In this document: piece after piece, positions 53,110 through 54,795 of the stretch | How positions within the stretch are numbered: the first letter of the stretch is position 1 | Layout of the letters: every line of letters begins with the position of its first letter | From: an uncultured Gemmatimonadaceae bacterium | GTDB lineage: Bacteria > Gemmatimonadota > Gemmatimonadetes > Gemmatimonadales > Gemmatimonadaceae | Assembly (NCBI GenBank): GCA_963817955.1 | Contig: CAWFQK010000002.1 | Location: 320,001-384,000 of the forward strand | Length of the DNA stretch: 64,000 nt | Reading direction: 5' to 3' | Translations under genes and position numbers: made by a program | The notes under the pieces: model-generated | Database searches by the model: none | What the model saw: the letters and a program-made list of their open reading frames with translations, nothing else | What the model was told of the DNA's origin: nothing

Positions 53110-54431
53110 AAGCCGACGGCGCCGCGAAGCGCCCGGTCGAGGTCCCGCTCGAGATCCTCGACGTCTTCGATTCCCACCGAAATGCGCACGAGCTCAGGCT
53201 GTACACCAGCGGCAACTCGTTCGTCGGCGGACAACTGCGCATGGGTAGTGCTCCACGGGTGAATGATCAGCGACTTGGCGTCGCCGACATTTGCAAGAAG
53301 CGAGAACAGCTTGGTGCGACCTGCTGCAGCGCGCGCAGCGGGTTCGCCGCCAAGGACGCCGAAGGTGAGCACGCCGCCGAATCCGCTCAGGTAGCGCCGA
53401 GCCGTTTCATACGACGGATGCGATACAAGCCCCGGATATGAGACCCACGTCACCGCTGGGTGCGATTCGAGGTACCGAGCGATGGCGAGCGCATTGCTGC
53501 AATGCCGCTCGATGCGCAGGTGCAGGGTCTCCAGCCCCTGCAGGAACAGGAATGTATTGAATGGCGACGCGGCCGCCCCGATGTCGCGCAACAGGACCAC
53601 GCGCAGCCGGATGGCGTACGCGATGTTCGCGCCGCCGAAGTCTCCGAACGTCTCCGCGAACCTGAGGCCGTGATACGCCGGCTCTGGATCCTGGTAGAAC
53701 TCTTTGAAGCGCGGGGCGTTGCCCCAGTCGAAGGTGCCGCCATCGACGACCACGCCGCCTATCGATGTGCCATGGCCGCCGATCCACTTGGTCGCCGAGT
53801 GCACGACGATGTCCGCGCCGTGCTCGATGGGACGGCACAGGATGGGCGTGCCGAAGGTGTTGTCCACCACGAGCGGCACGCCGGCAGCGTGCGCAACATC
53901 CGCGATGGCGCGAAAGTCCGGGACGTCGAGTCGCGGGTTGCCGATCGTCTCTACGTAGACGGCCTTCGTCGTGCTATCGATCGCACGGCTGAACGCTTGC
54001 GGATCGTTGACGTCGACAAATCGCGTCGTGATGCCGAGCCGTTGGAGCGTGTAGCGCAGCAGAGTGTACGTGCCGCCGTAGAGCGAACTCGATGCGACGA
54101 TCGAGTCCCCCGCCTTCGCGAGGTTGAGCAGCGCCAGGAGCTCGGCGGATTGCCCGCTCGACGTGGCAACCGCGGCGACGCCTCCTTCGAGCGCAGCAAT
54201 ACGTTTCTCGAAGACATCCGACGTGGGATTCATGATGCGCGAGTAGATGTTGCCGAACTTGCGTAGGGCAAACAGGTCGGCGGCATCCTCGGCGCTGTCG
54301 AAGACGTACGACGACGTCGCGTAGATCGGGACGGCACGCGAGTTGGTGGCACTGTCCGGGGTCTCCTGCCCCGCGTGGACGGCTCGTGTGCCGATACCGA
54401 GTTCGGGTTCGGCGCTGAGAATCGTGGCCAT
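53106..54431 (-). CDS. metY: O-acetylhomoserine sulfhydrylase (MetY/Met17)
   Basis: '[10 protein letters not shown]', '[11 protein letters not shown]', '[11 protein letters not shown]', '[14 protein letters not shown]'; AGGAG RBS. Confidence 0.95.
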
Positions 54432-54459
54432 CGGTTGGGTCTCCTGTGAAATGAAGGGG

Positions 54460-54502
54460 AAAAACAAAAAAGCCCGGTCCTCTCAGAGAGAGAGGACCGG
54501 GC
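54460..54502 (-). terminator. Attenuator terminator (T2) in the metY leader
   Basis: mRNA GCCCGGUCCUCUC-UCUCU-GAGAGGACCGGGC-UUUUUUGUUUUU, 13-bp perfect stem, about 30 nt before the metY ATG. Confidence 0.9.
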
Positions 54503-54527
54503 CGGTATGCGAGCTCGTGTTGGCTCG

Positions 54528-54629
54528 CTAGTCGCCTGCGCGCGTGCGCGGCACCCGTCCGTCTCTCCCATAAGGAGGAACGCACATGAGGCACATACAC
54601 ATGGGCATCGCGAGCGGCGTGAGGCGCAT
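54528..54629 (-). CDS. Putative Met/Cys-rich leader peptide (33 aa) of the metY-metX attenuator
   Basis: MRLTPLAMPMCMCLMCVPPYGRDGRVPRTRAGD*; 7 of codons 8-16 are Met or Cys; an antiterminator-complementary segment follows. Confidence 0.8.
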   Translation of the reverse strand: MRLTPLAMPMCMCLMCVPPYGRDGRVPRTRAGD

Positions 54630-54659
54630 CGTCAGATCAAAGTCGAGAAGAACGGATAC

Positions 54660-54691
54660 AAAAAAACCCCGGACGGGAAGGCCGCCGGGGC
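54660..54691 (-). terminator. Riboswitch-coupled intrinsic terminator (T1)
   Basis: mRNA GCCCCGGCGG-CCUUC-CCGUCCGGGG-UUUUUUU directly after the SAM-II aptamer. Confidence 0.82.
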
Positions 54692-54697
54692 ATTCGC

Positions 54698-54747
54698 GTT
54701 TTAGCATTTGTTTTACGTGGCTGCAATAGGCGGCAAATGACCACGAA
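54698..54747 (-). promoter_or_regulatory. SAM-II (SAM-alpha) riboswitch aptamer
   Basis: mRNA UUCGUGGUCAUUUGCCGCCUAUUGCAGCCACGUAAAACAAAUGCUAAAAC: P1 CGUGG/CCACG, pseudoknot CAUUUG/CAAAUG, conserved UUGCAGCCACG and GCUAAA; lies upstream of met genes. Confidence 0.85.
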
Positions 54748-54765
54748 TCCTTCGATTGTGTGCCC

Positions 54766-54795
54766 AGTATACGACACCGGGTGCAAAGATGTCAA
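54766..54795 (-). promoter_or_regulatory. sigma70-type promoter for the met leader
   Basis: TTGACA (54795-54790), 18-nt spacer, TATACT (54771-54766). Confidence 0.8.

Follow-up and report, generated by a model that had tools for sequence, protein, structure and literature searches.

A probable SAM-II-like riboswitch and a putative Met/Cys leader-peptide attenuator arranged in series upstream of metY

The leader of metY in the 64,000-nt stretch of Gemmatimonadota DNA analyzed here (hereafter the window) contains two modules, a SAM-II-like aptamer and a short open reading frame (ORF) rich in Met and Cys codons. Both are real and conserved, and each is accompanied by an intrinsic terminator of its own and by a plausible antiterminator strand. 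This supports a previous reading of this DNA from its letters (the sequence-only reading). We consider it likely that transcription from one promoter has to pass two termination checkpoints in series before it reaches metY and a MetX-like gene. The first checkpoint would be a SAM-II-type riboswitch and the second a ribosome-mediated attenuator that acts on a leader ORF of 33 codons. Because the two would be arranged in series, expression would require both low SAM and low levels of charged tRNA-Met/Cys, and either signal on its own would turn the operon off.

The metY leader, its SAM-II-like aptamer and terminator T1

The sequence-only reading had placed a promoter, a SAM-II aptamer, a first terminator (T1), a leader ORF rich in Met and Cys codons, a second terminator (T2), a ribosome-binding site and metY in this order on the minus strand, at positions 54431-54795 up to the start of metY. 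Each of these parts was found where it had been placed, and the outer limits were accurate; all features described below are located on the same strand. The metY gene (53106..54431, ATG at 54431), encoding an O-acetylhomoserine sulfhydrylase (homocysteine synthase), matched PF01053 with 476.5 bits and TIGR01326 with 641.6 bits, above the cut-off of 495.1, and is preceded by the ribosome-binding site AGGAG at 54441..54445, identified by inspection. The gene that follows (52111..53109) had been named metX; its product, an alpha/beta hydrolase (PF00561), scored 275 bits against TIGR01392, under the cut-off of 500, and is referred to here as MetX-like. The start of the MetX-like gene overlaps the stop of metY by 4 nt, and for this reason the two genes probably belong to one operon.

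On its 5' side, the leader is adjoined by a gene for tRNA-Leu at 54822..54903 (RF00005, 54.1 bits; predicted as tRNA-Leu also by ARAGORN). No terminator was found between this gene and the promoter, and tRNA-Leu transcripts would therefore continue into the leader. The sigma-70-type promoter (54766..54795), with a -35 element at 54795..54790, a spacer of 18 nt and a -10 element at 54771..54766 (TTGACA-18-TATACT), matches 11 of 12 positions. It was the sole promoter-like site in the region 54000-55300, as compared to a mean of 0.3 in shuffled sequences, in a scan of low sensitivity that missed the evident upstream promoters of three related loci (L001, L004 and L005). Transcription would start at a single site near 54759. 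The distance from T1 to the ATG of the leader ORF, given as about 30 nt in the previous reading, corresponds to a pyrimidine-rich spacer of 30 nt (54630..54659), which contains no Shine-Dalgarno sequence and in which, also in line with that reading, the insensitive scan detected no promoter-like site.

The aptamer (54684..54754) was delimited with a permissive Rfam search and with our own model, R1. Both helices of a SAM-II aptamer are present, but the scores fall under the Rfam gathering thresholds, with 33.1 bits against RF00521 (SAM_alpha; gathering score 36, E 1.2e-5 in a 651-nt search) and 30.7 bits against RF01726 (gathering score 44). When the whole window was scanned at the gathering thresholds, the aptamer was absent and tRNA-Leu alone was reported. 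The homologous element in L004 passes with 52.7 bits against the gathering score of 36, and the one in L001 stays under it with 30.8 bits. Since the elements in the window and L001 are located under the gathering score and the L004 homolog above it, we refer to the aptamer as SAM-II-like and consider it probably a divergent member, for which SAM is a candidate ligand only.

The P1 helix consists of five pairs (54745-54741 with 54720-54716) that enclose a loop of approximately 20 nt. It is paired in all 15 cells (100%) of the three sequences compared, with one compensatory change, from U:A to A:U, in L001. The P2 pseudoknot joins the 5' part of the loop to the 3' tail, and all six of its pairs are present in the window (54739-54734 with 54710-54705), the first of them swapped from G:C in the Rfam consensus to C:G. 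Across the three sequences, 88.9% of the P2 cells are paired, as compared to 35-52% when the partner strand was slid, and, with no more than three sequences to compare, 148 of 500 shuffles equaled the observed values. The placement of the aptamer behind a promoter, upstream of a methionine gene and with an intrinsic terminator, corresponds to that of SAM-II elements, which are mostly found right behind the promoter and are frequently followed by a terminator, according to the available text of Corbino 2005 (PMC1273637).

T1 (54660..54691) has a stem of ten pairs and one bulge (54691..54666), followed by a tract of seven U that ends at 54660, with a folding energy of -18.6 kcal/mol (z -2.85; 2 of 200 shuffles as good). 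A simple terminator scan detected only its inner part. The proposed 5' strand of the T1 antiterminator is located in the aptamer loop (54729..54734) and is complementary to the T1 5' arm (54686-54681), with G54734 being common to this duplex and to P2. In folds that stop short of the T1 3' arm, the predicted partner of the loop is the T1 5' arm both for the window and for L001, where the partner strand changes in step; in L004, a second copy of the loop motif takes this role. The T1 arms are out of register in the ungapped alignment A1, and column-wise pair counts were therefore replaced by duplex tests for each sequence, in which the number of shuffles that were as good was 41 of 300 for the window, 17 of 300 for L001 and 13 of 300 for L004. 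Taken together, these predictions speak weakly for the antiterminator. Binding of SAM would let P1 and the P2 pseudoknot hold the aptamer loop, so that T1 forms and transcription stops near 54660, whereas in the absence of SAM the loop would pair with the T1 5' arm and the polymerase would read through.

The Met/Cys leader ORF and terminator T2

The leader ORF (54528..54629) has 33 codons and a stop, with the ATG at 54629 and the TAG ending at 54528. Codons 8-16 (54608..54582) include four Met and three Cys codons, corresponding to seven of nine. Among the 109,442 stop-free segments of nine codons in the six frames of the 64 kb, only four contain at least six Met/Cys codons, and all four are located at 54611-54602; the other sites with five of nine were off-frame stretches of long ORFs and were not considered further. 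Upstream of metY, segments with at least five of nine Met/Cys codons were present in 8 of 79 sense regions, as compared to none of the 79 antisense regions, among the best 80 of at least 595 metY relatives. At the level of at least six of nine, 706,457 codon segments from the 80 loci of this sample (again the best 80 of at least 595) contained eight such places, five of which are met-operon leaders (L004, L008, L016, L033 and L060). The high counts in L050, L052 and L067 were artefacts from off-frame repeats of Leu codons, and a Met/Cys stretch inside a His-rich coding region of L041 was dropped.

The leaders of the window, L001, L003 and L006 are homologous, with a mean column identity of 70% (alignment A2). 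No Shine-Dalgarno sequence precedes the proposed leader AUG in any of the 12 leaders, as judged by eye, and the leader ORF is therefore only putatively translated. The leader of L007, with two Met/Cys codons, and a stretch in L062, with five of nine Met/Cys codons and no evident terminator, are regarded as candidates only.

T2 (54461..54503) is located between the leader ORF and metY and consists of a 14-bp stem (54503..54471) followed by a U run, with a folding energy of -31.2 kcal/mol (z -7.4; 0 of 200 shuffles as good). The stem starts 25 nt past the leader stop. All 12 leaders have a hairpin 20-41 nt after the stop, and a U run follows in 10 of them, the tails being weak in L005 and L008. 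A small hairpin (54509..54528; -10.7 kcal/mol, z -4.8, 0 of 200 shuffles) starts from the final nucleotide of the leader stop and sits in the loop of the predicted antiterminator; it has a counterpart in L001.

The predicted 5' strand of the T2 antiterminator, region 2 (54549..54569), is located within the leader ORF, where it begins approximately 16 nt past the last Met/Cys codon, and is complementary to the T2 5' arm. In a fold of the window truncated before the 3' arm, the T2 5' arm paired with region 2 with a probability of 0.86, and the duplex of the two strands had an energy of -21.8 kcal/mol, which was reached by 8 of 300 shuffles and by none of 11 foreign arms. For 11 of the 12 leaders, the T2 5' arm is predicted to pair, before the 3' arm is present, with a stretch of the ORF that begins 4-21 nt past the last Met/Cys codon. 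The duplex was better than at least 93% of the shuffles in eight of the 12, and no better than shuffles in four (L004, L005, L006 and L007). As to the classical 1:2 hairpin, in which the codon cluster would pair with the antiterminator strand, 17 of the 21 bases of the Met/Cys codons pair with downstream sequence in the window, and such pairing was clear in only three of the 12 leaders (the window, L005 and L016).

Equilibrium folding of the full attenuator with ribosome masks did not discriminate between the states, as the terminator probability was at least 0.86 under most masks at 9 of 11 loci; it varied with the mask in L001 and L060. Folds truncated before the 3' arm, together with duplex tests against shuffles, were used instead of full-attenuator folds. 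With a ribosome placed at the stop codon, region 2 of the window still paired with region 3 (0.93) in the truncated fold. Because equilibrium folding does not discriminate, the attenuator model rests on co-transcriptional kinetics. Under this model, a lack of charged elongator tRNA-Met or tRNA-Cys would stall the ribosome so that it covers the Met/Cys codon cluster, which would leave region 2 free to pair with the T2 5' arm, prevent T2 from forming and allow metY to be transcribed. An unstalled ribosome would pass over region 2, or region 2 would pair again with the Met/Cys codons, and T2 would form and end transcription near 54461. When Met is short, the leader peptide itself should also be initiated less often, which would oppose the putative sensor.

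The Met/Cys frame could also be something other than a tRNA sensor, in that the region between T1 and T2 is a structured RNA for another ligand or a protein, or encodes a functional Cys/Met-rich peptide, with the codon bias as a by-product. We consider this quite unlikely, because the bias is kept in a single open frame in unrelated nucleotide sequences from four phyla, with the stop 20-41 nt ahead of the terminator across those four phyla, and because the number and positions of the Met/Cys codons drift while the frame is kept. Also, the Rfam matches to the T1-T2 region are terminator-like only. Such an RNA or peptide would fit the lack of a Shine-Dalgarno sequence in the leader, the good pairing of UG-rich codon runs with the 3' half of the ORF, which is GC-rich, the Pro-x-x-Gly-like stretch found behind the cluster of several leaders, and the presence of four Cys codons also in frame +1 of the cluster stretch.

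The two modules alone and together in metY relatives

Met/Cys leaders with a layout similar to that in the window were found upstream of metY in Gemmatimonadota, Acidobacteriota, a Bacteroidota MAG and Ignavibacteria. Of 81 sources (based on the best 80 of at least 595 metY relatives), five carry both modules, in two phyla and in both orders. The SAM-II module precedes the leader in the window, L001 and L004, all three of which are Gemmatimonadota, and the leader precedes a SAM-I element in L016 (72.4 bits) and L008 (74.5 bits), which are both Ignavibacteria. In each of the five, two units, each with a putative sensor and a terminator, are located on one strand between the promoter and the gene. 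The leader was found alone in L002, L003, L006, L033 and L060, SAM-II alone in L028 and L057, and SAM-I alone in, for example, L026. Outside Proteobacteria, SAM-II-like elements were identified in Gemmatimonadota and, with our model R1, in Pyrinomonadaceae.

If the two checkpoints act independently in series, the modules are expected to occur both alone and together, in both orders and with two unrelated classes of SAM riboswitches, and the distribution thus indirectly supports the reading of two serial checkpoints. The recurrence of the pairing in a distant phylum suggests a natural two-input switch. In L005, which was considered as a further tandem, the element between the promoter and the leader is SAM-II-like by eye; it did not match model R1 and was not counted, and a comparison to Rfam gave nothing significant, with a best score of 21.9 bits to an unrelated family.

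We also considered that the leader is divided between two transcription units. SAM-II and T1 would then only end transcripts from the promoter and the tRNA-Leu gene, or produce a small RNA, while an unrecognised promoter close to T1 would drive metY, with the leader attenuator as its sole control. This division would be consistent with the location of the leader directly behind its own promoter in L002, L003 and L006, with the 190-nt repeat-filled spacer between the modules in L004 and with a weak promoter-like site (9 of 12 positions) between the two modules in L016. For the window, L001, L004 and L008, the scan, which is insensitive, showed no promoter-like site separating the two modules. 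Stable small RNAs are moreover described as arising from SAM-II riboswitches in S. meliloti (PMC9373788, available text). Nevertheless, we judge two units to be improbable, as the distance from the U tract of T1 to the leader AUG in the window is just 30 nt with no promoter-like site, and the order of the modules is identical in L001 and L004. It also argues against two units that SAM-II is a cis-regulator with metY as its core target, as stated for SAM_alpha in alpha-proteobacteria in the available part of PMC4239095.

Another alternative to independent checkpoints is that the modules are coupled through translation. An in-frame AUG at 54707 is located in the P2 strand of the aptamer, and SAM could control initiation at this codon, with the ribosome suppressing T1 and continuing to the Met/Cys codons. 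An ORF of 59 codons (54707..54528, minus strand) indeed runs through T1 into the leader, and the SAM-II leader of S. meliloti metA is described with an AUG1, a terminator and an in-frame AUG2 (PMC9373788, in part). However, a start codon at this site is absent from L001 and L004, the frame is discontinuous in L004, no Shine-Dalgarno sequence is present and the order of the modules is reversed in the Ignavibacteria, all of which makes the coupling very unlikely.

Returning to two serial checkpoints, we tentatively propose that the Met/Cys leaders represent an undescribed class of ribosome-mediated attenuators of metY (direct-sulfhydrylation) operons, present in at least four phyla and the first to read the charging of elongator tRNA-Met. 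Such leaders may have been joined at least twice independently to unrelated SAM riboswitches, with SAM-II placed ahead of the leader in Gemmatimonadota and SAM-I placed behind it in Ignavibacteria, to yield a hybrid two-input gate.

Comparison with known systems

The sequence-only reading had described the system as an undescribed one, which holds in a narrow sense. In a search of full-text literature, with subscription-only papers outside its scope, we found neither an attenuator based on Met codons nor a tandem of a riboswitch and a leader peptide for methionine genes. It does not hold in a broader sense, since the mgtA and mgtCBR leaders and uORFs with Cys codons are known. Within the searched literature, methionine is missing from the amino acids known to be under leader-peptide attenuation, and an attenuator based on Met codons would present a puzzle in that elongation senses Met-tRNA while initiation needs it too. 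If the proposed mechanism is correct, cells would read the pool of the cofactor SAM and the supply of charged tRNA-Met/tRNA-Cys separately for one operon, with one input to the gate coming from RNA-ligand binding and the other from a translating ribosome. As the tandem recurs with two riboswitch classes and in either order, it would then clearly exemplify a natural logic gate assembled convergently from terminator modules that are interchangeable and that would also provide compact parts for synthetic two-input control. For annotation, the results imply that SAM-II-like aptamers outside Proteobacteria can escape curated thresholds and that small Met/Cys-rich ORFs should not be called proteins.

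The first module is similar to the SAM-II elements of A. tumefaciens metA and S. meliloti metZ, in which a compact P1 and pseudoknot are located behind a promoter and followed by an intrinsic terminator upstream of metY, metX or metA. The known SAM-II riboswitches with a terminator platform are OFF switches, according to the available text of the three studies (PMC1273637, PMC4239095, PMC9373788). In contrast to these, the elements identified here belong to Gemmatimonadota and Pyrinomonadaceae rather than Proteobacteria, the copy in the window scores under the curated cut-off, and a second attenuator that is not a riboswitch is located downstream.

The second module resembles the trp and his attenuators in that it has a short ORF rich in codons for the products of the pathway, an intrinsic terminator and a competing pairing just past the codons. 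Attenuators with Cys codons in uORFs have been described for Rhodobacterales cysS (uORFC-8-2), for mycobacterial polycysteine uORFs and for actinobacterial cys leaders (PMC8632094, 10.1101/834739, PMC1262725, each in part). Unlike the trp, his and Cys-codon attenuators, the leader in the window would read both Met and Cys codons and control direct sulfhydrylation (metY), and has no Shine-Dalgarno sequence. It also differs in that the mycobacterial case acts on translation and in that the actinobacterial cys leaders are presented without terminators, as far as the available text of these sources goes.

The Clostridium acetobutylicum ubiG-mccBA operon is similar in being a sulfur amino-acid operon with a SAM riboswitch and a tRNA-based sensor. 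It carries a Cys T-box at its 5' end, and the tRNA sensor is thus a T-box, unlike the leader peptide proposed for the window. The antisense SAM riboswitch of this operon acts from the 3' end, with the operon being on at high SAM (PMC9943018, available text).

The closest precedents are the tandem riboswitches and the Salmonella mgtA and mgtCBR leaders. In the Bacillus clausii metE leader, a SAM-I and an AdoCbl riboswitch are arranged in series with two terminators, and either signal represses (PMC3641672, in part). The window is similar in that a single leader ahead of a methionine gene holds two complete units of sensor and terminator; it differs in that one of the proposed sensors is a translating ribosome that would read the charge of tRNAs, rather than an aptamer. 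The Salmonella mgtA leader contains a Mg2+ sensor and the Pro-codon ORF mgtL, and mgtCBR contains the ATP-sensing mgtM and the Pro-codon ORF mgtP (PMC3641672). As proposed for the window, a single leader thus joins a signal from a small molecule or ion to a signal from an amino acid or tRNA charging by means of a short ORF. The two signals of mgtCBR act independently, and mgtCBR is described as having no intrinsic terminators in the available text of the same source (PMC3641672). The ORFs of mgtA and mgtCBR are embedded in alternative stems of one long leader, whereas the window has two self-contained modules, with the ORF located 30 nt past the U tract of T1 and provided with its own terminator and predicted antiterminator. 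Finally, the signals for mgtA and mgtCBR (Mg2+, ATP, proline and osmotic stress) are not products of the controlled pathway, whereas both modules in the window would read the sulfur amino-acid branch.

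The leader of metY and its SAM-II-like aptamer

The sequence-only reading had placed a promoter, a SAM-II aptamer, a terminator (T1), a leader open reading frame (ORF), a second terminator (T2), a ribosome-binding site and metY in this order on the minus strand, and both the order and the coordinates were correct. The promoter TTGACA-18-TATACT (54795..54766; 11 of 12 positions match) was the only promoter-like site recovered by a promoter scan of 1.3 kb (shuffle mean 0.3). Its -35 box lies about 27 nt (54796-54821 between) after a tRNA-Leu gene (54903..54822, minus strand), which lacks a terminator of its own before the metY promoter, so that its transcripts should continue into the SAM-II element, and T1 may serve to terminate the tRNA transcripts as well. 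The divergent gene upstream of this region, on the plus strand, codes for trigger factor (55653-56891).

T1 (54691..54666; -18.6 kcal/mol, z -2.85) consists of ten pairs with one bulge, followed by seven U up to 54660, and is separated by a pyrimidine-rich spacer of 30 nt from the leader ORF of 33 codons (ATG 54629 to TAG 54528). T2 (54503..54471; -31.2 kcal/mol, z -7.4) has 14 pairs and a U run, and the motif AGGAG (54445..54441) precedes the metY ATG at 54431. A small stable hairpin (54509-54528, minus strand; z -4.8) begins on the last base of the leader stop codon and has a counterpart in locus L001. The metY product scored 641.6 bits against TIGR01326 (cut-off 495.1), while the start of the following gene, which is MetX-like but falls under the NCBIfam cut-offs (275 bits versus 500), overlaps the metY stop by 4 nt.

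The aptamer (54754..54684, minus strand) scored 33.1 bits against RF00521 (gathering 36; E 1.2e-5 in a 651-nt search) and 30.7 bits against RF01726 (gathering 44), and being below threshold it was not listed in the Rfam scan of the whole window at gathering level. Its core is common to the window and two of the loci around metY relatives, L001 and L004 (alignments A1 and A3), of which the L004 copy exceeds the Rfam cut-off (52.7 bits) and the L001 copy does not (30.8 bits). The P1 helix is intact in each of the three sequences; in L001, one U:A pair has become A:U, a compensatory change. For the P2 pseudoknot, 88.9% of cells pair, as compared to 35-52% when the partner is slid; the shuffle count (148/500) is uninformative with three sequences. 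The outermost P2 pair of the window is swapped from G:C to C:G relative to the Rfam consensus.

A model built from these three copies (R1) additionally recovered a SAM-II-like aptamer ahead of metY in each of two MAGs from Pyrinomonadaceae (Acidobacteriota), L028 (664-720; 29.2 bits, E 2.9e-5) and L057 (2296-2352; 16.7 bits, E 0.1), both missed by Rfam at gathering level and each with one terminator. The R1 search recovered no aptamer in L002, L003, L005, L006, L033 or L060. In L005, the promoter and the Met/Cys leader are separated by an element (2140-2290) that is structured, rich in GC and similar to SAM-II in its 3' motif. None of the Rfam families gave a significant match to this element, which may represent another type of sensor or a highly divergent one. 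Weak Rfam matches to mir-6132 and isrG in L003 (6053-6247) were rejected as spurious, as they arise from a run of hexamer repeats.

When the fold ends short of the T1 3' arm, the 5' arm of T1 (54686-54681) takes the aptamer loop (54734-54729) as its partner. L001 shows this pairing too, with both sides changed in step relative to the window, and in L004 a second copy of the motif takes the part of the loop. Support from shuffles is modest, with 41, 17 and 13 of 300 as good in the window, L001 and L004, respectively. Since G54734 is common to P2 and the loop-arm helix, it could provide a simple route for SAM to favour T1.

The Met/Cys codon cluster and its distribution

Codons 8-16 of the leader ORF include four Met and three Cys codons. 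Among 109,442 stop-free 9-codon windows in the six frames of the window, only four contain at least six Met/Cys codons, all at 54611-54602. We scanned species-representative genomes for MetY and kept the best 80 of at least 595 relatives, the six closest of which are from Gemmatimonadota (66-79% identity). In 600-nt upstream regions from the window and 78 loci (L066 and L069 have no upstream sequence), at least five Met/Cys codons out of nine were found in 8/79 in the sense and 0/79 in the antisense direction (antisense maximum 4). Across the 80 loci, eight places in 706,457 codon windows reach at least six of nine, five of which are met-operon leaders (L004, L008, L016, L033, L060). The high counts in L050, L052 and L067 do not represent leaders, but off-frame Leu-codon repeats.

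Leaders were identified in Gemmatimonadota (window, L001-L006) and outside this phylum in an Acidobacteriaceae MAG (L033), a Bacteroidota MAG (L060) and Ignavibacteria (L008, L016). Those of L003 and L006 have only three Met/Cys codons out of nine, mostly Cys, and align with the window and L001 leaders at a mean column identity of 70%. In most leaders (window, L001, L002, L003, L005, L006, L008), the cluster is followed within a few codons by one or two Pro codons and one Gly codon, which could reflect RNA pairing or slowing of the ribosome by the peptide. A leader ORF in Lachnospiraceae (L062, 2314-2400) has a Shine-Dalgarno sequence and, towards its 3' end, five Met/Cys codons out of nine, most of them for Cys; it has no evident terminator and may represent a variant acting on translation or through Rho.

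Geometry of the putative attenuator

Twelve leaders were analysed (window, L001-L008, L016, L033, L060). A strong hairpin is located 20-41 nt downstream of the stop codon in all of them, followed by a U run in ten (the tails of L005 and L008 are weak). When each leader was folded up to the terminator loop, and thus without the 3' arm, the 5' arm of the T2-type hairpin paired with a stretch inside the ORF in 12/12. This stretch starts 4-21 nt past the last Met/Cys codon in 11 leaders (+16 in the window; the exception is L004 at +48), an offset at which it would lie free ahead of the leading edge of a ribosome stalled there. The ORF tail of each leader was dinucleotide-shuffled 300 times; the shuffles at least as good as the native duplex numbered 2 (L008), 6 (L003), 8 (window), 11 (L001), 14 (L033), 15 (L016), 17 (L002), 20 (L060), 49 (L004), 122 (L006), 124 (L007) and 175 (L005). 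In the window, the antiterminator gains 8 kcal/mol before the T2 3' arm exists, and T2 is worth -30.6 kcal/mol afterwards. The choice between the two must hence be kinetic.

Three results weaken the attenuator case, and a rival explanation assigns the ORF region a non-sensor role. First, in equilibrium folding of complete terminators under ribosome masks, the terminator kept a probability of at least 0.86 under most masks in 9/11 loci, independently of the mask. Second, a ribosome at the stop codon still allowed the antiterminator to form (0.93, window fold without the 3' arm). Third, just 3/12 leaders clearly show the classical pairing between regulatory codons and antiterminator strand; in the window it covers 17/21 bases. 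By visual inspection, no Shine-Dalgarno sequence was seen before the proposed AUG in any of the 12 leaders. A pyrimidine-rich 11-nt repeat in 4.4 tandem copies precedes the AUG in L001 (2082-2129, after T1), and pyrimidine-rich stretches occur at this position also in the window, L003 and L006, none with a Shine-Dalgarno sequence.

Serial arrangement and comparison with known systems

Riboswitches were surveyed with Rfam (E up to 0.1 for L001-L008, gathering level for L009-L080) and with R1 on all 81 sources. SAM-II with a terminator precedes a Met/Cys leader with a terminator in the window, L001 and L004, while a Met/Cys leader with a hairpin precedes SAM-I with a terminator in L016 (72.4 bits) and L008 (74.5 bits). 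The leader occurs alone behind its own promoter in L002, L003, L006, L033 and L060, SAM-II alone with one terminator in L028 and L057, and SAM-I alone in, for example, L026. Riboswitch and leader are thus paired in 5/81 sources. These belong to two phyla, their riboswitches are of two unrelated classes, and either module can come first; among the SAM-II matches, a downstream Met/Cys ORF is found in the window, L001 and L004, but not in L028 and L057. In L008 (410-3135, Ignavibacteria), the tandem leader heads an operon whose genes code for a TusA-like sulfurtransferase, a DsrE-like and a CoA-binding protein, and MetY, a set suggesting that sulfur may reach MetY bound to protein. In L004, the 190 nt that separate T1 from the leader ORF are filled by a 9-nt repeat in about 11 tandem copies (2012-2108).

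One rival explanation is a hidden second promoter. The scan identified no promoter-like site between them in the window, L001, L004 or L008, in agreement with the sequence-only reading for the window, and a 9/12 site in AT-rich sequence in L016. However, the scan is insensitive: the upstream promoters of L001, L004 and L005, although evident, escaped it too, and its negative result is therefore weak evidence. Another rival is coupling of the modules through an AUG at 54707 in the P2 strand of the aptamer. This AUG shares the reading frame of the leader ORF and opens a 59-codon frame through T1 (54528-54707, minus strand), a layout reminiscent of the AUG1-terminator-AUG2 order of Sinorhizobium meliloti metA; L001 and L004 do not conserve it.

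The observation behind the proposed two-input gate was confirmed, and the predicted gate itself is supported as the best reading. With fair confidence, we consider two serial checkpoints responding to SAM and to charged tRNA-Met/Cys the most likely mechanism. A single transcript would pass two termination sites, T1 being closed by SAM through the SAM-II pseudoknot and T2 being opened solely by a ribosome stalled at Met/Cys codons for lack of charged tRNA, so that metY and the MetX-like gene would be transcribed only when SAM and charged tRNA-Met/Cys are both low. Since MetY produces homocysteine from sulfide, it makes sense for the leader to read both sulfur amino acids.

The SAM-II and T1 module of the window has the same layout as the arrangement described in the accessible text of two reports, in which SAM-II lies just past the promoter and is followed by a terminator upstream of met genes (PMC1273637, PMC4239095). 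For S. meliloti metA, where a terminator also follows SAM-II, the authors could, in the passages available, predict no second sensor (PMC9373788). Short-ORF attenuators with Cys codons have been described or predicted for cysS of Rhodobacterales, according to an excerpt of PMC8632094; the effect of mycobacterial Cys-codon ORFs is translational in the portion available of 10.1101/834739. The part available of PMC1262725 describes such ORFs, with terminators absent, in actinobacterial cys operons, and states that methionine operons of these bacteria showed no RNA element. Multi-signal leaders in which a further sensor is joined to an ORF that reads an amino acid are represented by Salmonella mgtA and mgtCBR, the latter called singular and set against the two-terminator tandem riboswitches of Bacillus clausii metE in the sections available of PMC3641672. 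A full-text literature search, which lay outside most subscription journals, returned neither a Met-codon attenuator nor a tandem of riboswitch and leader peptide on methionine genes. The suggestion of an undescribed system holds in a narrow sense: each module singly is of a known kind, and what appears to be new is that the putative attenuator is specific for Met/Cys and stands in series with SAM riboswitches.
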